Origin: an uncultured Anaerolineales bacterium
Lineage (GTDB): Bacteria > Chloroflexota > Anaerolineae > Anaerolineales > UBA11858
DNA length: 64,000 nucleotides
NCBI GenBank assembly: GCA_964481465.1
Contig: CAYZTL010000008.1
Location: forward strand, 78,663-142,662
Direction of reading: 5' to 3'
The stretch's first letter is position 1; the number at the start of each line of letters is the position of its first letter. The translations under genes were made by a program, and so were the position numbers. Under the pieces are notes generated by a model. That model was given only the letters and a program-made list of their open reading frames with translations. It was not told the DNA's origin and made no database searches. Shown one piece after another: positions 464 through 13,616 of this stretch.

Positions 464-2227
<1,764 letters not shown>

Positions 2228-2299
2228 AGACCGGGGGATTGCGGGCGGATCTTCATGTGATTCTCTCTCTTTTGATCCGAACTTGTCTTGGAGAATGCT

Positions 2300-3121
2300 A
2301 TGAAGAAGGTTGGCGATTTATTTGACCTAAGCGATCGGACAGCTTTAGTGACAGGTGGAGCTGGATTCCTTGGGCAGCACTTCTGTGCAGCGCTGTCCGA
2401 GGCTGGAGCCAACGTGGTTGTGGCGGATATTGACCACAAAACTGCGCTTGATTTTGCAAAGGACCTCGAATCCAGGCTGGGACCCGCTGCTGGTGTAGGG
2501 GTGGATATCGCTGATCCGGAATCTGTCCGGGAAATGGTGGATTTTACCTTAGACCAATTTGGGCGATTAGATATCCTGGTCAATTCAGCGGCTTTGGATC
2601 CAAAATTTGACAGCCAGAGCGCCTCTAAGCACGTCTCTTCTTTTGAGGATTTTCCCCTCCAGGCCTGGCAGAACGCCATGGATGTCAATCTTACGGGTAT
2701 GTTTTTAGCCTGCCAGGCAGCAGCGAAGGTCATGAAAGAGCGCGGCAAAGGGTCTTTGATCAATATTTGCTCCACTTACGGCATTACGGGACCGGATCAG
2801 CGGCTTTATGAATCTCTTGGAGAACCCCGGAAATACAAGCCGGTCTATTACACAGTCAGTAAAGCCGGGGTCCTGGGCTTGACGCGCTACATCGCCACAT
2901 ATTACGCAGGTACGCAGATCCGTTGTAACGCGCTCACGCCTGGCGGAGTGGAGCACGGTCATGCTCCTGCCTTTAAAGAAGCCTACGCGAGCAGGACGGT
3001 TCTGGGGCGGATGGCTTACCCGCACGAAATGAAGGGAGCCATCGTCTTTCTGGCATCGGAGGCTTCCAGTTACATGACCGGGGCAAACCTGGTTGTGGAT
3101 GGAGGTTGGACAGCATGGTAG
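2300..3121 (+). CDS. Short-chain dehydrogenase/reductase (SDR)
   Basis: 'VTGGAGFLG' Rossmann motif and 'YTVSKAG' catalytic YxxxK. The track start at 2288 is TTG. The ATG at 2300 has GGAG about 8 nt upstream. Confidence 0.8.
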   Translation: MKKVGDLFDLSDRTALVTGGAGFLGQHFCAALSEAGANVVVADIDHKTALDFAKDLESRLGPAAGVGVDIADPESVREMVDFTLDQFGRLDILVNSAALDPKFDSQSASKHVSSFEDFPLQAWQNAMDVNLTGMFLACQAAAKVMKERGKGSLINICSTYGITGPDQRLYESLGEPRKYKPVYYTVSKAGVLGLTRYIATYYAGTQIRCNALTPGGVEHGHAPAFKEAYASRTVLGRMAYPHEMKGAIVFLASEASSYMTGANLVVDGGWTAW

Positions 3122-4320
3122 AAGTTTTATCCCTCATCCCGGCCAGGGGTGGGTCCAAAAGCATTCCCCGCAAAAATATCAAATCCTTGGGGGGACACCC
3201 CTTGATTGCGTATAGTATATATGCGGCGTTGCAGGCGACAACTGTGGACAGGACAGTGGTCTCCACGGATGATCGGGAAATCGCGGAGATTGCCCGTTCG
3301 TATGGTGCGGAAGTCCCCTTTTTGAGACCCGCGAAGTATGCCCAAGATGACACCCTGGACCTTCCCGTCTTCCAGCATGCCCTCGGTTGGTTGGCAAAGG
3401 AGGAAAGCTACCAGCCTGACGTGGTCATTCAGCTCCGGCCCACGAGTCCATTCCGCCCCCCGGGGTTGGTGGATGAAGCGGTGCAGGTCTTCCTGGACCA
3501 TCCGGAGGCATCATCGGTTCGAGGGATTGTGCCCTCCAAACAAAATCCCTATAAAATGTGGCGGATAGGACAGCAGGGCAGGATCGTTCCGCTGCTGGAG
3601 ACGGATTTTGAAGAGCCTTATAATATGCCCCGGCAGGATCTACCGGATACCTACTGGCAAACCGGACATATCGATGTCATCGCCGCAGAGACGATCCTGG
3701 ACGGGTCCATGAGCGGTCCTCGGATATTTCCCTGTCACATCGATCCTCGGTTCACTGTGGATTTGGACACTCCCTTAGATTGGAAACTGGCTGAATGGCG
3801 TTTGCAGACTCTGCGCGAGGAGATCGTCTGTCCTCCTCTGGAAAAGCGTTTCTCCTTCCAGGGAATCAAACTGGTCGTGCTGGATTTTGACGGGGTGATG
3901 ACTGATAATCGGGTTTATGTCGATCAGCGTGGCGAAGAATCCGTAGCAGCCCATCGCGGGGACGGGATGGGCATCTCCCTTCTCAAAAAAGCGGGCGTTG
4001 AAGTGATCATCCTTTCCACTGAGAAGAACCCGGTCGTAACAGCCCGGGCTAAAAAGCTGCAAATCCCAGTCCAGCAGGGGATTGAAGAAAAAGGGGTGGC
4101 ATTGAAAGCCCTTTTAGCGGAGAAAGAGATCCCAGCCCACCAGGTGGTTTATTTGGGGAACGATATCAATGATCTGCCTTGCTTTTCCCTGGTTGGCACG
4201 GCAGCTGCAGTGGCAGATGCCCATCCGGCGGTACGTCAAAAAGCAGATTTGATATTAGAAACAGCGGGGGGAGCGGGAGCCGTGCGAGAGTTAGCGGACA
4301 TGATCCTGGCGGGTAAATAA
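3115..4320 (+). CDS. Fusion of a NeuA-type cytidylyltransferase (CMP-nonulosonate synthetase-like) with a KdsC-like HAD phosphatase
   Basis: N-terminal 'IPARGGSKSIPRKNI...GHPLIAYSI' is the acylneuraminate cytidylyltransferase signature. C-terminal 'LVVLDFDGVMTDNRV' is HAD motif I (DxD), with 'GNDINDL' as motif IV. The ATG at 3115 overlaps the upstream stop (ATGGTAG). Confidence 0.8.
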   Translation: MVEVLSLIPARGGSKSIPRKNIKSLGGHPLIAYSIYAALQATTVDRTVVSTDDREIAEIARSYGAEVPFLRPAKYAQDDTLDLPVFQHALGWLAKEESYQPDVVIQLRPTSPFRPPGLVDEAVQVFLDHPEASSVRGIVPSKQNPYKMWRIGQQGRIVPLLETDFEEPYNMPRQDLPDTYWQTGHIDVIAAETILDGSMSGPRIFPCHIDPRFTVDLDTPLDWKLAEWRLQTLREEIVCPPLEKRFSFQGIKLVVLDFDGVMTDNRVYVDQRGEESVAAHRGDGMGISLLKKAGVEVIILSTEKNPVVTARAKKLQIPVQQGIEEKGVALKALLAEKEIPAHQVVYLGNDINDLPCFSLVGTAAAVADAHPAVRQKADLILETAGGAGAVRELADMILAGK

Positions 4321-4353
4321 ATATACGTATCAAAGCATGGGGAGGGTTCATTC

Positions 4354-5259
4354 ATGAAACGGGAAATCAAGTTGGGGGATCGTTGGGTAGGGGAGGGGCA
4401 TCCGACATATATCATCGCGGAGATTGGCATCAATCACAACGGGGATGTGGAGATTGCCAAACAGCTGATTGACGCTGCAGCGGAAGCAGGTTGCGATGCG
4501 GTTAAATTTCAGAAGCGGACGCCCGAACTTTGCGTACCGGAAGAGCAACGGGATAAAATGCGCCATACTCCCTGGGGGTATATCAGTTACATGGAGTACC
4601 GCGACCGGGTGGAATTTGGGTTGGACGAGTATACAGAAATCACGGACTATTGTCTAGCAAAGGACATTGACTGGTTTGCCTCCTCATGGGATCAACCTTC
4701 CGTGGATTTTTTGGAGCAGTTTGACCCCATCGCCCACAAAGTACCCTCTGCGCTGCTCACGGATTCCGCTTTGTTAAGGAAATTGAAAGAACAGGGGCGT
4801 CCAATTATTCTCTCCACCGGGATGTCGGAGATGGAACAGATCAAAGCCGCAGTCGATATATTGGGTACAGATGATCTCGTCATCGCCCACTGCACGAGCA
4901 CATATCCCTGTCCGCCAAAACAGCTCAACCTGCGGATGATCCAAACCTTACGGGATATGTATCCATGTCCGATCGGGTATTCTGGTCACGAAGTGGGGTT
5001 GCCCACAACCGTAGCTGCGGTGACTTTAGGGGCTTCTGTGGTGGAGCGCCACATCACGTTGGATCGCGCGATGTGGGGGTCCGACCAGGCTGCTTCCGTG
5101 GAACCTGGAGGGGTTCGTCGCTTGGTGAAGTACATACGGGTCGTTGAAGAGGCGTTGGGAGATGGGGTGAAAACGGTGTATGAGAGCGAGATGCCCAGCT
5201 TGGAGAAATTACGGCGAAGAAATACGTTACCTGTTCGGGGACGGTACAAGAAGGATTGA
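4354..5259 (+). CDS. NeuB-family nonulosonic acid (9-phosphate?) synthase lacking the C-terminal SAF domain
   Basis: 'YIIAEIGINHNGDVEIAKQLIDAAAEAGCDAVKFQ' and 'YSGHEVG' are typical of NeuB/PseI/LegI-type PEP condensing enzymes. It is only 301 aa and ends where the SAF/antifreeze-like domain normally begins. Confidence 0.8.
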   Translation: MKREIKLGDRWVGEGHPTYIIAEIGINHNGDVEIAKQLIDAAAEAGCDAVKFQKRTPELCVPEEQRDKMRHTPWGYISYMEYRDRVEFGLDEYTEITDYCLAKDIDWFASSWDQPSVDFLEQFDPIAHKVPSALLTDSALLRKLKEQGRPIILSTGMSEMEQIKAAVDILGTDDLVIAHCTSTYPCPPKQLNLRMIQTLRDMYPCPIGYSGHEVGLPTTVAAVTLGASVVERHITLDRAMWGSDQAASVEPGGVRRLVKYIRVVEEALGDGVKTVYESEMPSLEKLRRRNTLPVRGRYKKD

Positions 5260-5378
5260 TCGAGATGGTGACAGCTGCGGATGAGGTGCTAGATAAAGAC
5301 CACATCATGGTTTAGTATAGGGTATCGATGCTCATCCAATTCTTTGCGGGTTGATGGTCAGTTGAGCAAAAGGAGACG

Positions 5379-6983
5379 ATGTTCTCAGGGTTATTCAAGA
5401 AACTCGAACGGGGATTGGTGAACCTCCGCCTTTCTTGGCGCATTTTTCGCTTAACTCGGAAGGTTAAAGCCCATTCACAAACCAACGAAGAGGAAAATCC
5501 GGTCGTTTTTTTCAATGCTTCCACTCGGTTGTGGGGTTTGAATTTAAATGCCGCCTTTGCCATGCTTTCCAGTTGGGCTGTCCAATTAAGCGGTAGGCAG
5601 GTGTATCATTTTGGTTGTTCCTCGGGAATGGGCCAATGTGTATTGGGGGCTGGTGTGGGTGACCCGAGAGATCCTCCACCCTGTCAGGATTGTATTGGTT
5701 ACACACGGCGGTTTACAGGAGCGGCTCCAACCGTCTGGTTCGAATACCGGGAGGATCCCGAGCTTCGGGACCATTTGGAAGGAAAAACCATCTCTGAATT
5801 GAAGGAAGTGAAATATCAGGGTCGACCGCTGGGCCGGCTGGTGCTGCCCAGTTTGCGTTGGATCCTCCGCCGGCACCATCTGGAAGACAATCAGGTGACC
5901 CATTATCTCTTCCGTGAGTTCATCCTTTCAGCGCACAATGTAGCTGAAAAATTCCATGATTTCCTAGAGGAAGTCCATCCAGAGGTTGTGGTTGTGTTCA
6001 ACGGCTTGCAATATCCGGAAGCTGCTGTTCGCTATGTCGCGGAGCAAAAGGGAATTCGGGTCATTACCCATGAAGTGAACTTACAACCTTATTCTGCCTT
6101 CTTTACAGAGGGGCAGGCTACGATATATCCCCTGGACATACCGGAAGATTTTCAGCTGTCGAAAAAACAGAATCAGAGATTGGATCGCTATCTGCAAAAG
6201 CGGTTCCAGGGCGATTTCACCATGGCTGGGATCAAGTTCTGGTCATCTATGACTCGCCTTCCTGATGCGTTCCTGCAATTTGCTGGAAAATTTGAAAATC
6301 TGGTTCCGGTTTTTACCAATGTGGTCTTTGACACCAGCCAGGTGCATGCCAATACGATCTTTCCGCATATGTTCGCCTGGCTGGATGTGGTCCTTGAGAT
6401 TGCTGAAGGTTACCCGGACATTTTATTTGTCATTCGGGCGCATCCGGATGAAATGCGGAAGGGGAAAGAAAGCCAGGAAAGCGTCGCTGCCTGGGCGGAA
6501 GACCACCAGATTAACGCCATACCGAATGTCCACTTTGTCCCATCCCAGGAACCGATCAGCTCCTATGAGCTCATCCACCGCTCAAAATTCACCATGGTTT
6601 ATAACTCATCTATCGGTTTGGAAGCCACCCTGTTGGGGGTTCCGGTGTTGTGTGCGGGAAAGGCCCGTTATACCCAATACCCGACGGTTTTTTACCCTTC
6701 CAATCAAGCGGAGTATGAGGAGTTATTCCTGTCCTTCTTGGACGAAGAGGATATTGAAGTCCCCCAGGAATTCGTGGAGAATGCCCGCAGGTTTTTGTAC
6801 TATCAGCTGTACAAAGCCTCCTTGCCATTCGCTGATTTTCTGATGGACCACCCCACTCCCGGATATGTCCAATTGGGCAATTTTTCGTGGAAATCACTCT
6901 GCCCTGGGAATTCAGCTGTGATGGACGTTGTGGTCAGTGGCATATTGGATGGGAAGGCGTTCGTTATGGAGGACGATCTCTGA
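5379..6983 (+). CDS. Putative GT-B glycosyltransferase of the capsule-synthesis (KpsS/KpsC-like) or sialyltransferase-like type
   Basis: 'FVIRAHPDE' (HP motif) and 'YNSSIGLEATLLGVPVL' resemble motifs I recall from CMP-ulosonic-acid dependent transferases. The N-terminus has a Cys-rich stretch 'CSSGMGQC...PPPCQDC'. The assignment rests on memory only. Confidence 0.45.
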   Translation: MFSGLFKKLERGLVNLRLSWRIFRLTRKVKAHSQTNEEENPVVFFNASTRLWGLNLNAAFAMLSSWAVQLSGRQVYHFGCSSGMGQCVLGAGVGDPRDPPPCQDCIGYTRRFTGAAPTVWFEYREDPELRDHLEGKTISELKEVKYQGRPLGRLVLPSLRWILRRHHLEDNQVTHYLFREFILSAHNVAEKFHDFLEEVHPEVVVVFNGLQYPEAAVRYVAEQKGIRVITHEVNLQPYSAFFTEGQATIYPLDIPEDFQLSKKQNQRLDRYLQKRFQGDFTMAGIKFWSSMTRLPDAFLQFAGKFENLVPVFTNVVFDTSQVHANTIFPHMFAWLDVVLEIAEGYPDILFVIRAHPDEMRKGKESQESVAAWAEDHQINAIPNVHFVPSQEPISSYELIHRSKFTMVYNSSIGLEATLLGVPVLCAGKARYTQYPTVFYPSNQAEYEELFLSFLDEEDIEVPQEFVENARRFLYYQLYKASLPFADFLMDHPTPGYVQLGNFSWKSLCPGNSAVMDVVVSGILDGKAFVMEDDL

Positions 6984-7849
6984 TGAGGGTTTACTATTCA
7001 ATCAAGCGCTTCCTTAAATTGATACGCCTTGAAATACGACGCCAACGGGCGATTAACCGCTGGGGGAAGGAAGCTTTTCTCAATGCGCCTCCTGTTTTGG
7101 GCACGGCCCTTCCCAAAGGAGGTTCCCACCTTCTGATCCAGGTTCTGCGTGGATTGGTGGAGATCGGTCCCTTTGTGGATCCGGGATTTCCACCTGTGAA
7201 TAGATTTGAAGGCAATACCCCTATTTCTGAAAGGGAGACGGTAAATGAGATCAAGCGCATGCGATCCGGTGAAATTCGTTATGGGTATGCGCCCTGTCGG
7301 GAACCCTATCTCTCTGTGATGACTGCGCCAGGGCGGGCAACGGTGTTTCTTTTTCGCGATCCCCGGGATCTGGTGGTCTCCCACGTCTTTTATGCTATAG
7401 ACATTCACGAAGGGCATGGCATGCATGATTATTACAATAATCAGCTGCAATCGATGGAAGAACGCTTAAATGTCGCTATTGAAGGGTGCGATATCCCCGG
7501 TTTGGAATTGCCCAGTGTGTGGGAGAGGTATGAAGATCGGTTGGGGTGGTTTGAGGAAGAAGATGTGCTTTGTATTCGTTTTGAGGATCTCATATTAAAT
7601 CGGGAGGAGCCCATAGGTGATATTCTGGACTATCTAAACGGGTTTGGCGTTAAGTTCGCTGTCTCCCGTGAGGAAGCGATTCAAACCCTGGGAAATGCGA
7701 TTAAACCCCAGAAGTCTGGTACATTTCGGAAAGGGGAACCTGGAAATTGGAAGGAGCACTTCACTCCCGAGAATAAAGCGCGCTTTAAAGCGGTCGCAGG
7801 GAATTTACTGACCAGGTTAGGTTACGAAGAAGACGACCAGAATTGGTAG
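6983..7849 (+). CDS. Sulfotransferase family protein (no. 1)
   Basis: 5'-PSB-like loop 'LPKGGSHLL' and 3'-PB motif 'FRDPRDLVVS'. The ATG at 6983 overlaps the upstream TGA (TGATG). The track ORF begins earlier, at 6887, inside the previous gene. Confidence 0.75.
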   Translation: MRVYYSIKRFLKLIRLEIRRQRAINRWGKEAFLNAPPVLGTALPKGGSHLLIQVLRGLVEIGPFVDPGFPPVNRFEGNTPISERETVNEIKRMRSGEIRYGYAPCREPYLSVMTAPGRATVFLFRDPRDLVVSHVFYAIDIHEGHGMHDYYNNQLQSMEERLNVAIEGCDIPGLELPSVWERYEDRLGWFEEEDVLCIRFEDLILNREEPIGDILDYLNGFGVKFAVSREEAIQTLGNAIKPQKSGTFRKGEPGNWKEHFTPENKARFKAVAGNLLTRLGYEEDDQNW

Positions 7850-8836
7850 ATGATGGATATGAATGACAAGCATAAGAGTTCCAGACCGAAATGTTCCATT
7901 GTCATCCGCGCCTTCAACGAAGAGGAACACATCGGGCGTTTGCTGGAAGGGATCACGAAGCAGACCATGGAAGACTGGGAGATCATCTTGGTCGACTCGG
8001 GTTCAACGGATGCCACAAGGGCGATTGCCTCGCGTTATCCCGTTCGCATCGTTTCCATCGATCCGGACAAATTCACATTTGGTCGTTCTTTGAATACAGG
8101 CATTGAATATGCCCGGGGGGAGATCGTGGTCATGATCAGCGCGCATTGTTATCCGGTTTACCCCGATTGGCTGGAGCAGTTGATCGCGCCCTTAGATGAT
8201 CCAGATATCGCGGTTAGTTACGGTAAACAGCGGGGGAGAAAAACCAACCACTATTCAGAGCACCAATTTTTCCGTCATTATTTTCCAGAGAGCAGCCAAT
8301 CCAAACAAGGACAACCGTATACCCATAATGCCAATGCTGCCATCAAACGCTCCCTGTGGGAAATCCATCCGTATAATGAAAATTTGACGGGATTAGAAGA
8401 CATCGCTTGGAGCAGTTGGGCTAAGGAAGAGGGATATGAAATATCTTATGTGGCGGAAGCAGAAGTTGTCCATATCCATGACGAGAAGCCATCTCAAATA
8501 TACAATCGCTATCGTCGAGAAGCGATCGCCTTGAAACAGATCTTGCCTGACAGTCGATTTACCCTGTGGGATTTCTTAAGCATGTGGTTCCACAAATCAT
8601 TCTCCGATATGGCCCAAGCGTATCGCGATCGCGTGTTGAGAAAGGAGTGGCTTGACATCCTGTGGTTCCGTTTCTTGCAATATTGGGGAACGTGGCGGGG
8701 ATATCGATATTCGGGGAAGATAGATATGCAACTCCATAAAAAATTCTATTATCCCCCCCACATCCTTTCCGGGAAAATACCCGACTCGCGTTCCGTTAAA
8801 CCTATTGAATACAAGGCGGGAGTGGAAAAGGAATGA
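7850..8836 (+). CDS. Glycosyltransferase family 2
   Basis: 'CSIVIRAFNEEEHIGRLLEGITKQT...EIILVDSGSTD' GT-A fold N-terminus with a DxD-like 'LEDI'. The start abuts the upstream stop (TAGATG). Confidence 0.8.
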   Translation: MMDMNDKHKSSRPKCSIVIRAFNEEEHIGRLLEGITKQTMEDWEIILVDSGSTDATRAIASRYPVRIVSIDPDKFTFGRSLNTGIEYARGEIVVMISAHCYPVYPDWLEQLIAPLDDPDIAVSYGKQRGRKTNHYSEHQFFRHYFPESSQSKQGQPYTHNANAAIKRSLWEIHPYNENLTGLEDIAWSSWAKEEGYEISYVAEAEVVHIHDEKPSQIYNRYRREAIALKQILPDSRFTLWDFLSMWFHKSFSDMAQAYRDRVLRKEWLDILWFRFLQYWGTWRGYRYSGKIDMQLHKKFYYPPHILSGKIPDSRSVKPIEYKAGVEKE

Positions 8837-9516
8837 CCATCTCTATGTTTAAAATCACCGCGTTAGTTCCCATGCGCCATCATTCCCAACGTGTTCCTGG
8901 AAAGAACTATCGTCCCCTGGGGGGGAAACCCCTATTCCACCATATCATCTCAACCCTGCAGGCGGTGCCTGAGATTGGGGAGATTATCGTGGATACGGAT
9001 AGTCCCGTCATAAAAGAAGGGTTATTAACCCATTTCCCCTCGGTAACGGTCTTCGATCGTCCTGATCAATTATGCGGCGATGCGACTTCCATGAACGAGA
9101 TCATCGCCTACGATGTATCCCAGCGCGAATCCGAGTTCTTCCTGCAAACCCACAGCACAAATCCTTTCTTGAAAGCGGAAACGATCTCTCGTGCTGTTGA
9201 AACGTTTAGAGACACATATCCTAAGTGTGATTCCCTATTCTCTGTGACGCGTATATACACCCGTTTGTGGGATGGTGACGCAAGGGCGATTAACCATGAC
9301 CCTTCTGAGCTGATTCAGACGCAAAATTTGCCGCCTATTTATGAAGAAAACTCCTGTTTGTATATTTTCTCGAAAAAGGACTTTCTGAAACAGCGGCATA
9401 GGATAGGAGAAAATCCCCTCATGTTTGAAATAGATCGACAAGAAGCCTGGGATATTGATACCGAGTTGGATTTTGAGATTGTTTCCTGTTTGATGGAACG
9501 AGAACGAAGAGAGTGA
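8833..9516 (+). CDS. Second NeuA-family cytidylyltransferase
   Basis: 'ALVPMRHHSQRVPGKNYRPLGGKPLFHHII...VDTDS'. ATGA overlap with the upstream gene. Confidence 0.7.
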   Translation: MTISMFKITALVPMRHHSQRVPGKNYRPLGGKPLFHHIISTLQAVPEIGEIIVDTDSPVIKEGLLTHFPSVTVFDRPDQLCGDATSMNEIIAYDVSQRESEFFLQTHSTNPFLKAETISRAVETFRDTYPKCDSLFSVTRIYTRLWDGDARAINHDPSELIQTQNLPPIYEENSCLYIFSKKDFLKQRHRIGENPLMFEIDRQEAWDIDTELDFEIVSCLMERERRE

Positions 9517-9519
9517 CCA

Positions 9520-10482
9520 ATGAAAACCGTCCTACTGACAGCCCCCTATATGCAGCCCGAAGCGGATCGTTTCCTGCCCATCCTTGAGGAACATGGTTTG
9601 GAGGTGATTCTCCCGGATGTCGAAGAACGGCTGGAAGAGGAGGAATTGCTCCGGTTCGCGGGACAGTTCGACGGCACGATTTGCGGCGATGACCAGTACA
9701 CGGCCAGGGTCTTGGAAGCTTGTTCGCCCCCTTTGAAAGTGATCTCCAAATGGGGAACAGGCATTGATTCCATCGACCAGGAAGTGTGCGCTCGCTTAGG
9801 CATCATGATTGGAAACACACCGAATGCGTTTACTTTGCCGGTGGCGGATACTGTTTTGGGGTATATCCTCGCCTTTGCCCGAAATCAACCCTGGCTGGAT
9901 CGAGCTGTCAAAGCGGGGCAGTGGCGGAAGATTCAGGGGAGATCGCTCAGCGAATGTGTCCTTGGCGTCATTGGTGTGGGGAACATTGGAAAAGCTGTGC
10001 TCCGGCGGGCAGATACATTTGGGATGAAATTGTTGGGGAATGATATCCGGGAAATAGAGCCGGATTTCCTTGCTGAACACAATCTAAAGATGGCCCCACT
10101 GGATGAGTTATTATCATCGGCGGATTTTGTCAGCCTGAATTGTGATTTGAATCCGACCAGCTACCATTTGATTGACGAGAGGGCATTTTCGAAGATGAAA
10201 CCCGGGGCGTATCTCATCAACACCGCACGGGGTCCCATTATCGATGAGGGGGCATTGATCAACGCTTTGGAGGCGGGCCGGATAGCCGGGGCCGCTCTGG
10301 ATGTTTTTGAGCAGGAACCGCTTCCCGAACAGAGCCCACTCCGTTCATTTGATCAGGTCCTTCTTTCCCCTCACAATGCAAACTCGAGCCCTACAGCTTG
10401 GGAAAGGGTCCATTGGAATACCATTCGCAATCTCTTTGAAGGGTTAGGGATACCTGCCCATGATCTGAATGAGAAGGGATAA
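9520..10482 (+). CDS. D-isomer-specific 2-hydroxyacid dehydrogenase family (phosphoglycerate dehydrogenase-like)
   Basis: 'GVIGVGNIGKAV' NAD-binding motif, 'INTARGPIIDEGAL', and 'LLSPHNA' with the catalytic His. Confidence 0.8.
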   Translation: MKTVLLTAPYMQPEADRFLPILEEHGLEVILPDVEERLEEEELLRFAGQFDGTICGDDQYTARVLEACSPPLKVISKWGTGIDSIDQEVCARLGIMIGNTPNAFTLPVADTVLGYILAFARNQPWLDRAVKAGQWRKIQGRSLSECVLGVIGVGNIGKAVLRRADTFGMKLLGNDIREIEPDFLAEHNLKMAPLDELLSSADFVSLNCDLNPTSYHLIDERAFSKMKPGAYLINTARGPIIDEGALINALEAGRIAGAALDVFEQEPLPEQSPLRSFDQVLLSPHNANSSPTAWERVHWNTIRNLFEGLGIPAHDLNEKG

Positions 10483-10486
10483 TCTT

Positions 10487-11245
10487 ATGTCTCAAAAGAC
10501 GCTTTTAATCACGGGAGCAGCGGGGGGCATTGGCCGGGCCACGGTAGATTACTTTTCTTCCCAAGGTTGGAAAGTCATTGGGGTGGATCGATCGCCATAT
10601 AAGGACACGTTTCCAGATTCGGGGTTGCTCATACGAGCGGATGTGTCCATTCCCGATGAATGGGAGAGGATCATCGCGGAAGTGGCATCCTACACGGATC
10701 ATTTGGATGTTGTCGTCAATAATGCAGCCATTCAGATCACGAAACCGTTTTTAGAAACCACTATTGAAGAGTGGGATCGCGTGATGAATGCCAATCTTCG
10801 CGCGGTGTTTTTGTCCACAAAGAACACCCATCCTTTGCTGAAAGCCAAGGGTGGAGGAGCGATTGTCAATGTATCCTCCGTGCACGCGGTAGCTACATCA
10901 AAGGAAATCGCTTCCTATGCAGCAAGCAAGGGAGGGTTGTTGGCTCTCACGCGAGCTATGGCCATCGAGTTCGCGGATGATAACATTCGCGTCAATGCCA
11001 TCCTTCCCGGGGCAGTGGACACCGCGATGCTGCGGGCAGGAATGAATCGCGGTCATGCAGGTCAAGGGTCCATCAAGCAGCGGTTGGAAAACCTGGCTTC
11101 GAAAACGGTAAGCGGCAAGATCGGGAAACCAAGTGAAATTGCCAAAGCCATATATTTCTTGGCGGATGATACCCAATCCTCCTATATGACAGGACAATCG
11201 CTCATTGTTGACGGAGGGGCAACGGCAAAGTTAAGCACGGAATGA
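10487..11245 (+). CDS. Short-chain dehydrogenase/reductase (SDR)
   Basis: 'ITGAAGGIGRA', 'NNAA', 'SYAASKGG'. The ATG at 10487 follows GAGAAGGGA. The track start at 10469 lies inside the previous gene. Confidence 0.8.
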   Translation: MSQKTLLITGAAGGIGRATVDYFSSQGWKVIGVDRSPYKDTFPDSGLLIRADVSIPDEWERIIAEVASYTDHLDVVVNNAAIQITKPFLETTIEEWDRVMNANLRAVFLSTKNTHPLLKAKGGGAIVNVSSVHAVATSKEIASYAASKGGLLALTRAMAIEFADDNIRVNAILPGAVDTAMLRAGMNRGHAGQGSIKQRLENLASKTVSGKIGKPSEIAKAIYFLADDTQSSYMTGQSLIVDGGATAKLSTE

Positions 11246-11249
11246 CGTT

Positions 11250-12074
11250 ATGAACTCATTGAGCAGAAAATTCGCTGAATGGCTCCCATCCCGGGCGCGA
11301 AGGAATGCGCGCCGGTTGTGGTATTTTCTGAAACGCGCTTCCCAGTGGCCTTTTGCGCGATTCCATCCCTGGCGGCGGGAGAGCATTCGACGATTAGAAA
11401 GGTTGAAAGACCTTCACCGCGGGGAGCGCTGTTTTGTGATTGGGAACGGACCCAGCCTGAATGAAACCGATATTTCGCGGTTGGAAGATGAATATACGTT
11501 TGGCATGAACCGGGTTTATTTGGCCTTTGATGAATGGGGTTTTCAGACTTCTTGCCTTGTTTCGGTGAATGACCTGGTCATTGAACAATGTCATCAGGAC
11601 TTCCAGGAATTGGAAATGCCCAAGTTTTTTTCGTGGCGGGCCCACAATCTGCTCTATCCAGACGGGACTCCGGATGGCAACACTCATTTCCTGTTTACTA
11701 CGTATACCGGGCCCACATTTGCTCAGGATGCACGATCAAGGATGTGGGAAGGCGCGACGGTTACGTATGTGTGTTTGCAGTTAGCCTTCCATATGGGATT
11801 TGAGAAAGTGATATTAATCGGGGTCGACCATAGTTTTTCCACCCGGGGAGAACCGAATACCACGGTTGTTTCCGAGGGGGAGGATCCCGATCATTTCCGT
11901 GGAGAGTATTTTGGAGAGGGGTTCCGCTGGCAGCTTCCCGACCTGGAAACCTCAGAGACCGCTTACCGGATGGCGAGAGATACCTATCGGGAAGCAGGCC
12001 GGGAGATCGTCGATGCCACCATCGGCGGAAAACTGAAGGTATTTCCCAAAGTCAATTATTTCGACTTGTTTTAA
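11250..12074 (+). CDS. DUF115 (Maf/MptE-like) or GT42-like putative nonulosonic-acid transferase
   Basis: 'CFVIGNGPSLNETDISRL' and 'VILIGVDHSF' parallel the GNGPSL and (L/I)xG(I/V)D motifs of CstII-type sialyltransferases and motility-associated-factor (DUF115) proteins. Confidence 0.6.
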   Translation: MNSLSRKFAEWLPSRARRNARRLWYFLKRASQWPFARFHPWRRESIRRLERLKDLHRGERCFVIGNGPSLNETDISRLEDEYTFGMNRVYLAFDEWGFQTSCLVSVNDLVIEQCHQDFQELEMPKFFSWRAHNLLYPDGTPDGNTHFLFTTYTGPTFAQDARSRMWEGATVTYVCLQLAFHMGFEKVILIGVDHSFSTRGEPNTTVVSEGEDPDHFRGEYFGEGFRWQLPDLETSETAYRMARDTYREAGREIVDATIGGKLKVFPKVNYFDLF

Positions 12075-12101
12075 TGAGGAACAACGGATGGTCTTACCTC
12101 T

Positions 12102-13616
12102 ATGTTTGAAGATGAGACTTATTCCATTTTCGGGCTGTCTTCTTTGTGGCTGATGGCGGTGATCGTCATCATTCTGGCTTGTGGGTTGGGAGTGCGCCTG
12201 TATGATCTCAAAGATCCTCCGTTGGACTTTGCTTCTACGAGACAGTTGCGGTCCGCTCTCATCGCTCGTGGTAAGTATTACCGCATAGCCAGGAATGTGC
12301 CAGAATGGAAGCGTGAAATTGCCCTCCAACAGGGCGAGCATACCCTGTTAGAACCGACGATCCTTGAGACGATTGTCGCGGGCACCTATTGGGTGGCGGG
12401 CGGAGAATATGTGTGGATTGCCAGAATCTACTCCTCTGTGTTTTGGGTTCTAGGAGGGGTGGCTGTTTTTGGATTAACCAGGGAGATGATCGGTCTTGAT
12501 GGCGCAGTGATAGGATTGACTTATTATCTTTTTGCCCCTTTTGGGATTAAAGCCAGCCGAAGCTTTCAACCGGATCCATTGATGACCGCATGTGTCGCTT
12601 ATGCTTGGTGGACGTTTCACCGCTGGCATCGTAGCCATACCTGGAAATGGGCTTTGTTCGCAGGTATATCTTCAGGGTTGGCTTTACTCGTCAAATCCAC
12701 ATCGGTCTTTTTTTTGATAGGGGGGATGGGCGCCCTCCTCCTCAGGCGAGGTGTAAAAAAGACATTGAAAGATGCCCAAGTTTGGGCAATCGGCCTTCTC
12801 TCAGGACTCCCTGTCCTGCTTTACAACGTCTATGGTATTTTCATCGTCGGCACACTGGGGGAACAATTCCAGGGCAGGATCTTTCCCCAATTGCTTGATG
12901 ACTTCCAATTCTATCGCCGCTTGAAAAACGCGATGTCGAGTGTGGCTGGGCATGAACTGATCCTCTTGGTAGCTTTGATGGGTTTGATCCTGGTATGGAA
13001 GAAAGAGGAAATTGGTTATCTTTTAGGCATTTGGGTTGGATATCTTGTATTCATTTTGACTTTTTCTTATCATTCCATCACCCATTATTACTATCATCTG
13101 CCCCTGATACCCTTGGTTGCCATTTCCATAGCCAGCGTTTCTAATTCCGTCTTCGAGAGGATCAAAAGCGGTCATCTTAAATACGCGATCCGGGTTGGAT
13201 TGGTTTTCATCCTCCTCCTCGGCGTTGGAGGGGGGTATTACATGTTATTCAATGAGGATTACAGGCATGAGCCGGGTTGGTATTGGAAAGTAGCAGATAA
13301 AGTGGACCGTGATGTTGATATTGTGGTATTGAGTCAGAATTATGGGAATCGCATTGCCTATTATGGTTGGATTGAACCCAAGGTCTGGGTGGGATCAGAG
13401 AATCAAGAATATTCGGAATTACGCGGTGGTGAAAAGGAACCATTTGAGCAGCATTTCAATCAATTGGTCGGAGATGCGGATTATTTTCTCGTCACTAGAA
13501 TGAATGAACTTCGCAGGCAAGAGAAATTGCGGGACAAACTCTACAATACATATAAAATCCATGCAGAAGGGGGCGGTTATGTTATCTTTGATCTTCATCA
13601 GAAGCTAAAACAATGA
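12102..13616 (+). CDS. GT-C fold membrane glycosyltransferase (ArnT/PMT, GT39/83-like)
   Basis: 504 aa with many predicted TM helices through about residue 390. It then has a soluble C-terminal domain of about 110 aa. The first loop is 'LKDPPLDFASTRQLRS'. Confidence 0.5.
   Translation: MFEDETYSIFGLSSLWLMAVIVIILACGLGVRLYDLKDPPLDFASTRQLRSALIARGKYYRIARNVPEWKREIALQQGEHTLLEPTILETIVAGTYWVAGGEYVWIARIYSSVFWVLGGVAVFGLTREMIGLDGAVIGLTYYLFAPFGIKASRSFQPDPLMTACVAYAWWTFHRWHRSHTWKWALFAGISSGLALLVKSTSVFFLIGGMGALLLRRGVKKTLKDAQVWAIGLLSGLPVLLYNVYGIFIVGTLGEQFQGRIFPQLLDDFQFYRRLKNAMSSVAGHELILLVALMGLILVWKKEEIGYLLGIWVGYLVFILTFSYHSITHYYYHLPLIPLVAISIASVSNSVFERIKSGHLKYAIRVGLVFILLLGVGGGYYMLFNEDYRHEPGWYWKVADKVDRDVDIVVLSQNYGNRIAYYGWIEPKVWVGSENQEYSELRGGEKEPFEQHFNQLVGDADYFLVTRMNELRRQEKLRDKLYNTYKIHAEGGGYVIFDLHQKLKQ

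Follow-up and report, generated by a model that had tools for sequence, protein, structure and literature searches.

A probable phosphate-route nonulosonic acid module with a SAF-less NeuB synthase in an uncultured Anaerolineales bacterium

We analyzed a 64,000-nucleotide stretch of DNA (hereafter the window; GCA_964481465.1, contig CAYZTL010000008.1, positions 78,663 to 142,662) from an uncultured Anaerolineales bacterium, with a focus on two adjacent genes on its forward strand. The first (3115-4320) encodes a NeuA-type cytidylyltransferase fused to a KdsC-type HAD phosphatase, and the second (4354-5259) encodes a NeuB-family synthase that has no SAF domain. These two genes, probably with the short-chain dehydrogenase/reductase (SDR) gene at 2288-3121, probably form a module that makes a nonulosonic acid via phosphorylated intermediates, of the same kind as SCO4880/SCO4881 of Streptomyces. 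The phosphate route is well supported by gene context, natural fusions, gene absences and phylogeny. The assignment of the product as Kdn (2-keto-3-deoxynononic acid) is the best available one, and its basis is a link to Streptomyces rather than to Bacteroides. Both the fusion and the SAF-less synthase are real and no artefact of assembly or frameshift. The module is widespread, and databases annotate its proteins as NeuA and NeuB family members.

Domain structure and distribution of the fusion and the synthase

The fusion gene lies in an open reading frame at 3106-4320 (+). Its likely start is the ATG at 3115, which gives a protein of 401 amino acids (404 from 3106) and matches the length of its database cluster. 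The N-terminal domain (3115..3810, +) is a NeuA/PseF-type synthetase of cytidine monophosphate (CMP)-nonulosonate. Residues 10-235 matched CTP_transf_3 (PF02348) and PseF (TIGR03584, 157.5 bits), the PDB matches were the NeuA/CMAS structures 9FTB, 6IFD, 1EYR and 1QWJ, and the PARGGSK motif was kept in 117/120 homologues. The C-terminal domain (3856..4320, +) is of the KdsC-type (C0) HAD phosphatase family; residues 251-402 matched TIGR01670 at 107.3 bits, just over the cut-off of 106.95, and the domain aligned end to end with solved KdsC structures. It contains DFDGVMTDN, and motifs I-IV (DxDGV, Ser/Thr, Lys and G(N/D)DxND) were intact, with the C-terminal GGxGAxRE also in place; motifs I and IV were kept in all 120 homologues. 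The best PDB match was 3MMZ (168 bits). A further match (8e-21) was 3EWI, the KdsC-like domain at the C-terminus of the mouse CMP-sialic acid synthetase. The profile matches and intact motifs bear out the initial annotation, which had described a cytidylyltransferase fused to a KdsC-type C0 HAD. The fusion of two steps, which it also noted, is not special to this organism: Streptomyces and further Actinobacteria widely carry the same NeuA-HAD fusion, and the vertebrate CMP-sialic acid synthetase has the same layout.

The synthase (4354..5259, +) is a phosphoenolpyruvate (PEP)-condensing enzyme of the NeuB family with 301 amino acids, and its match covered the NeuB model PF03102 fully (1-241, 266 bits). 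The SAF model PF08666 had no match in the protein, and no SAF remnant was found in the 119-nt gap 3' of the gene or in the next open reading frame. A tblastn search with seven SAF domains gave nothing below E ~1 in the window and nothing below 0.01 in the genome. Orthologues were of similar length (290-305 amino acids), so the synthase is neither truncated nor frameshifted, and the earlier observation that it ends before the SAF domain was confirmed. The residues invariant in both SAF-bearing and SAF-less groups (E23, N27, H28, K51, Q53, K129, H212, E231, H233 and D244) were all present.

We compared 56 actinobacterial proteins with 24 short NeuBs from SDR-linked loci. No position was differentially fixed between the two groups at the thresholds used, and 90 positions were invariant in both, including K54 and R55 (FQKR), R70, T72-G75 (TPWG), W107, W112, W241 and R287. 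The FQKRTP strand and loop (K54, R55; 4513-4521 in the window) and the C-terminal KLR tail (L286, R287; 5209-5214) were invariant across all 80 short NeuBs. In its FQK(R/S) strand and in the long loop that follows, the short NeuB presumably resembles the animal synthase NANS. The invariant basic residues are candidate binders of a sugar phosphate. SAF-less NeuBs have been noted previously, in work that also describes an SAF arginine in canonical NeuB (PMC8208679); the arginine of the KLR tail may stand in for it.

The fusion and the synthase each had hundreds of close relatives (65-97% identity), and the named ones were Anaerolineales or Chloroflexi metagenome bins. The nearest 150 cluster representatives of the synthase (50% identity clusters) were mostly 270-305 amino acids long. 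Of 301 sampled Anaerolineae genomes, 53 had a NeuB-family match and about two dozen had an orthologue at 57-73% identity. Of 24 Anaerolineae loci with the orthologous short NeuB, 21 had a KdsC-type HAD no more than 1.5 kb away from it, either fused to NeuA or stand-alone after an SDR gene; two exceptions, from the same order as the source genome, carried the NeuA-HAD fusion on another contig. Natural fusions joined the short NeuB to its partners as well. These included a NeuA-HAD-NeuB protein of 683 amino acids in Nonomuraea maritima, a HAD-NeuB protein of 478 amino acids in Mucilaginibacter with a NeuB part 62% identical to the window synthase, and NeuA-NeuB, NeuB-NeuA and NeuB-MptE/Maf-like (941 amino acids) proteins.

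Three side observations concern the same family. One NeuB representative of 371 amino acids has an N-terminus that begins with a DLDGT motif. The nine sampled genomes of the same order all had a SAF-less NeuB and all had a second NeuB-family gene (32-35% identical, open frame of 336-418 amino acids), while the source genome had no second copy. A 2.6-kb contig titled uncultured Porphyromonadaceae bacterium (L105) encoded a NeuB and a sulfotransferase that share 78% and 62% identity, respectively, with those of the window; these identities are far above those of any other Bacteroidota locus, and the contig is probably an Anaerolineales contig in the wrong bin.

Actinobacterial counterparts, precursor genes and phylogeny

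We scanned one genome per species. The same short NeuB (59-66% identical to that of the window) was found in about 45 Streptomyces species and at about 60 actinobacterial loci overall, with further carriers in Microbacterium, Curtobacterium, Brevibacterium, Nonomuraea, Streptosporangium and others. Immediately upstream, on the same strand, lay the matches to NeuA and HAD. In Streptomyces sp. E-08 the NeuA-HAD fusion was one open frame with a third-position G+C above 0.9 throughout. It was preceded by a gene for a DUF6716 putative glycosyltransferase, and a glycosyltransferase family 2 (GT2) gene and a polysialyltransferase-like gene were divergently transcribed. This layout matches that published for SCO4878-4881 of S. 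coelicolor, where SCO4878 and the SCO4879-SCO4881 operon are described with a NeuE-like gene, NeuA and NeuB (PMC3479208). SCO4873-4882 is named as a teichulosonic-acid gene cluster (PMC13011467, citing Ostash 2014), and teichulosonic acid is given as a Streptomyces polymer of galactose and Kdn (PMC11481543).

Enzymes of other routes were searched for in the window and in the source genome (3.19 Mb, 31 contigs, 93.8% complete). In the window, NeuC/WecB, PseG and PseH were absent, as were an extended-SDR dehydratase and a DegT aminotransferase. The initial annotation had reported the lack of NeuC, a 4,6-dehydratase and an aminotransferase, which is correct for the window; similar genes, for a DegT aminotransferase and an extended SDR together with a formyltransferase, are found 12-14 kb upstream of it on the same contig. 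Genome-wide, there was one true NeuB. The sole Epimerase_2 protein was a non-hydrolysing WecB (506 bits), which scored 85 bits on the NeuC model against a cut-off of 236. We found no NanE, PseG, PseH or KdsA in the genome, no PseB-grade dehydratase (the best Polysacc_synt_2 match had 81.8 bits) and no second KdsC-type HAD besides the domain of the fusion. The signature of the canonical N-acetylneuraminic acid (Neu5Ac), pseudaminic acid (Pse) and legionaminic acid (Leg) routes, namely a hydrolysing 2-epimerase (NeuC/LegG) or PseB, PseC, PseH and PseG along with a SAF-bearing synthase, was likewise not found in the genome. The earlier argument that gene absences speak against these three routes was therefore upheld at the scale of the genome. 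Because NeuC, NanE, PseB/G/H, a second NeuB and KdsA are all missing from it, the sugar-phosphate route is well supported, and because it has neither KdsA nor a second KdsC-type HAD there is no other plausible job for the HAD domain here.

Two candidates were rejected in these searches. The second PF03102 match in the genome was a 3-deoxy-D-arabino-heptulosonate 7-phosphate synthase in an aromatic amino acid operon and not a second NeuB. The upstream DegT, extended-SDR and formyltransferase genes were considered as a hidden Pse/Leg branch; they reached neither the PseC nor the LegB cut-off, have the look of ArnA/ArnB genes, and stand in a genome with no PseG, PseH or second synthase. The glycan cluster that holds them, just upstream of the window (contig positions 60000-79000), also encodes a Wzt-type ABC transporter ATPase, a family 4 glycosyltransferase, a MarR-type regulator and an RmlD-like protein.

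Mannose phosphate metabolism is plausible. Gmd and an Fcl-like gene were found in the same upstream cluster, 8-9 kb from the window, and the presence of Gmd implies that guanosine diphosphate-mannose, hence mannose phosphates, are made. The sole candidate for a phosphomannose isomerase (PMI) was a phosphoglucose isomerase (PGI)/PMI-type SIS protein on another contig (C7, 137806-138726), which scored 212.1 bits on TIGR02128 against a cut-off of 213.9.

The tree of synthases was built from 47 rows and the barrel columns only, by an IQ-TREE quick search with SH-aLRT support; its root was placed at a PseI, so named by PGAP, that is encoded in a pseCGHI cluster. BT1714 itself was represented by the synthases that adjoin BT1713 equivalogs in Bacteroidales, and the Prymnesium Kdn-9-phosphate synthase was outside the tree. 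One clade (support 96) united the BT1714-type group (100), a single clade without SAF (99) and SAF-bearing proteins, some of which are HAD-linked in Anaerolineae. Among the members of the clade without SAF were the synthases of the window and of Streptomyces, Hymenobacter, Mucilaginibacter, Methylomagnum and others, and the absence of SAF was a single change on the tree. The window synthase thus grouped with BT1714-type enzymes and apart from PseI and the NeuC-linked NeuB; the latter and an Azospirillum NeuB-like protein also fell outside the clade with support 96. Clustering with PseI or LegI had been named in advance as a result that would speak against the phosphate route, and it was not obtained: PseI was outside that clade, in a tree that contained no assayed LegI.

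Proposed pathway and alternative explanations

We infer all steps of the proposed pathway from homology and context. The SAF-less NeuB would join PEP to the 6-phosphate of a hexose, in all likelihood mannose, and so make a 9-phospho-nonulosonate (Kdn-9-phosphate). The KdsC-type HAD domain of the fusion would take off the phosphate, and the cytidylyltransferase at the N-terminus of that polypeptide would convert the free sugar to the CMP-sugar. Products of the downstream genes, namely the transferases, the sulfotransferases and the Wzy-like protein, would then incorporate it into a sulfated surface glycan.

The SDR gene (2288..3121, +) leaves room for a different product. It encodes a classical, PtmA-like oxidoreductase (adh_short_C2, 175.6 bits) whose best NCBIfam match was PRK09186 (181.8 bits against a cut-off of 255), and its stop and the start of the fusion gene overlap, so that the two are translationally coupled. 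SDR orthologues (45-72% identity) preceded the HAD or NeuA-HAD gene in loci of Chloroflexota, Bacteroidota and Proteobacteria, and were absent beside the pair in actinobacterial loci. Synthesis of plain Kdn does not call for an enzyme of this type, so the product may be a modified one: the phosphate route would be the same, and the SDR, perhaps with the module at 8833-12074, would oxidise or epimerise the sugar, or another sugar phosphate would be used, to give an undescribed isomer or derivative of Kdn. We regard this as possible and clearly less probable than Kdn itself. The conservation and coupling of the SDR favor it, as do the contents of the window module (a second cytidylyltransferase, a 2-hydroxyacid dehydrogenase, a second SDR and an MptE/Maf-like protein) and the position of the SDR-HAD-NeuB trio of Hymenobacter and Methylomagnum beside a class-III aminotransferase. 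However, the NeuB of the actinobacterial loci, which have no SDR, showed no differentially fixed residue relative to the SDR-linked group, and the SDR is a generic classical one, for which a PDB search returned generic SDRs alone and no specific functional relative. For the non-actinobacterial carriers in particular, a tentative proposal is that the SDR acts on a Kdn-type intermediate to yield an isomer or a keto derivative that has not been described before, in the window perhaps with the 8833-12074 module and the sulfotransferase. If true, this would mean a cell surface with a new, possibly sulfated, nonulosonic acid.

In Hymenobacter setariae (4704-11299 of the locus) the trio adjoins the class-III aminotransferase and a fatty acid hydroxylase. 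On a plasmid of Methylomagnum ishizawai (4895-13566) it lies beside the class-III aminotransferase, a split transketolase, LplT, a GNAT protein and a lysophospholipid acyltransferase. An amino derivative or a lipid-linked product may be made in these lineages.

We consider an animal-like Neu5Ac route improbable. Here the synthase would use N-acetylmannosamine 6-phosphate to make Neu5Ac-9-phosphate, which the HAD domain would dephosphorylate. The fusion has the layout of the vertebrate CMP-sialic acid synthetase (matches to 1QWJ and 3EWI), the synthase-phosphatase fusion of Leptospira has been read in this way (PMC3438082), and a NanE-like gene is reported in the S. coelicolor cluster (PMC3479208). 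In the source genome, however, no NanE, hydrolysing 2-epimerase or other source of N-acetylmannosamine 6-phosphate was found, and the Streptomyces polymer contains Kdn and not Neu5Ac (PMC11481543).

A role of the HAD domain in oligomerisation alone, with a short NeuB that takes an unphosphorylated sugar, is similarly improbable and perhaps a little more so. Its catalytic motifs I-IV were intact in 120/120 homologues, and stand-alone HADs and HAD-NeuB fusions in the same clade have no cytidylyltransferase to oligomerise. The precedent for such a role is the homologous domain at the C-terminus of the vertebrate CMP-sialic acid synthetase, which is reportedly inactive as a catalyst; in the mouse enzyme (3EWI) it has been reported to be without phosphatase activity and to serve tetramer formation.

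That precedent is one of several points that weigh against Kdn as the product of a phosphate route in the window. The HAD domain scored below both the KdsC (NF007019, 137 bits against 208) and the BT1713 equivalog (NF058599, 99.7 bits against 180) cut-offs. A type I PMI was not found in the genome, and the PGI/PMI candidate is just below its cut-off. The tree came from a quick search with few named references and included neither an assayed LegI nor an animal NANS. The plain route has no place for the conserved SDR. The S. coelicolor cluster is reported to include the NanE-like SCO4873 (PMC3479208), which leaves room for an N-acetylated substrate in that organism. The link to Kdn itself derives from Streptomyces genetics and chemistry, both at second hand, rather than from enzyme assays within the SAF-less clade.

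Neighbouring genes and comparison with known systems

The module is part of a same-strand (+) run at the start of the window, in the order sulfate-activating enzyme, SDR, NeuA-HAD fusion, NeuB, candidate transferase and sulfotransferase. The run opens with the gene for a bifunctional sulfate adenylyltransferase/adenosine 5'-phosphosulfate kinase (488..2227, +; NF004040, 852 bits against a cut-off of 669), which supplies 3'-phosphoadenosine 5'-phosphosulfate and is context, not core of the module. The best promoter-like site was at 370-397, 5' of this gene. Downstream of neuB, a protein of 534 amino acids (5379..6983, +) is a candidate glycosyltransferase with weak Capsule_synth/BFO_1060-like matches (PF05159, 29 bits; NF046086, 42.8 bits) and a possible CMP-nonulosonate transferase; its orthologues (47-64% identity) came after neuB in Anaerolineales loci. 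The sulfotransferase gene follows (6887..7849, +; PF00685, 41 bits). Its orthologues (40-62% identity) stood directly after the short neuB at twelve of the compared loci, L105 included, and this position in many Anaerolineales is a hint at sulfation of the nonulosonate or of its acceptor. Further on, up to about 23 kb, there were more glycosyltransferases, the second cytidylyltransferase module, further sulfotransferases and a Wzy-like protein. The genes of that module (8833-12074), for the second cytidylyltransferase, a D-2-hydroxyacid dehydrogenase, the second SDR and the MptE/Maf-like protein, were kept as a block in three Anaerolineales loci.

Measurements on extracellular polymers from granular sludge have found Kdn-type and other nonulosonic acids as well as sulfated glycoconjugates, with polymers rich in Kdn-type sugars and sulfate among them, in a study where annotation could not separate Kdn synthases from Neu5Ac synthases (PMC10483923). 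The practical rule that we offer is a SAF-less NeuB of the FQKRTP...KLR type beside a KdsC-type HAD, as in the Streptomyces operon. Loss of SAF by itself is not such a marker, which corrects a shortcut.

The comparison with Bacteroides showed why. The Kdn pathway of B. thetaiotaomicron, which was used as the template in work on Kdn synthesis in Prymnesium parvum (PMC6200933), shares its logic with the window: a NeuB-family synthase (in Bacteroides the Kdn-9-phosphate synthase BT1714), a KdsC-type C0 HAD (there the Kdn-9-phosphate phosphatase BT1713) and a CMP-synthetase. We searched 401 Bacteroidales genomes with NF058599, the BT1713 equivalog model (cut-off 180 bits), and 32 had a protein at or above the cut-off, each stand-alone. 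At all 14 loci fetched, the synthase beside it was 34-41% identical to the window NeuB (35-38% for near-full-length matches). These synthases had 345-346 amino acids in the four loci with a full open frame read, and both of the two scanned against Pfam contained the SAF domain. Since BT1714-type synthases keep SAF, its loss is not a mark of Kdn-9-phosphate synthases, and the link that the initial annotation had drawn between SAF loss and a phosphorylated substrate failed. Its match to the B. thetaiotaomicron pathway stood in part. The synthase, C0 HAD and CMP-synthetase logic and the shared clade (96) agree with it, but the proteins are not orthologues: the window HAD had 99.7 bits on NF058599, and the BT1714-type synthases share 35-38% identity, form a separate clade (100) and alone have SAF. 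The three-step logic also leaves the coupled, conserved SDR unexplained. On these identities and tree positions, the system of the window is best placed as the same broad kind as the Bacteroides Kdn system and not as its orthologue.

The vertebrate NANS-NANP-CMAS route also proceeds via a phosphorylated intermediate, and CMAS has the two-domain layout of the fusion, with its halves matched separately in the PDB (1QWJ and 3EWI). In contrast to the window, NANS keeps its antifreeze-like (SAF) domain and the phosphatase NANP is a separate enzyme. The best solved-structure match for the synthase was the SAF-less Leptospira protein 6NCS (290 amino acids, 1.4e-41), which does not have the FQKRTP loop and KLR tail that are invariant in the clade of the window. 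A synthase-phosphatase fusion has been described in Leptospira and a phosphate route proposed from it (PMC3438082); however, its fused phosphatase is described as a different kind of domain than the HAD of the window.

The Streptomyces and window systems differ in three respects. The source genome has no NanE, unlike the reported S. coelicolor cluster, and the PtmA-like SDR beside the pair in the window is missing in Streptomyces. The Streptomyces transferases are of the DUF6716, GT2 and polysialyltransferase-like types, while the window has Capsule_synth-like, GT2 and sulfotransferase proteins; no DUF6716 or polysialyltransferase-like transferase was found in the window, whose transferases belong to other families, and the candidate transferase at 5379-6983 had no match in the Streptomyces loci. 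The core is the same. In both, a fusion of NeuA and a KdsC-type HAD is followed directly by a SAF-less NeuB (about 297 amino acids in Streptomyces, 63-65% identical to that of the window), and both synthases belong to the same SAF-less clade (99). Between Streptomyces sp. E-08 and the window, identity is 63% for NeuB and 53% for the HAD, and 3MMZ has nearly the same sequence as the HAD part of the E-08 fusion. The module therefore opens no new kind of biology and is of a recognised type, since the Streptomyces operon for a Kdn cell-wall polymer has the same pair. Judged by sequence and gene order, the closest known system is the teichulosonic-acid operon SCO4879-4881 of Streptomyces.

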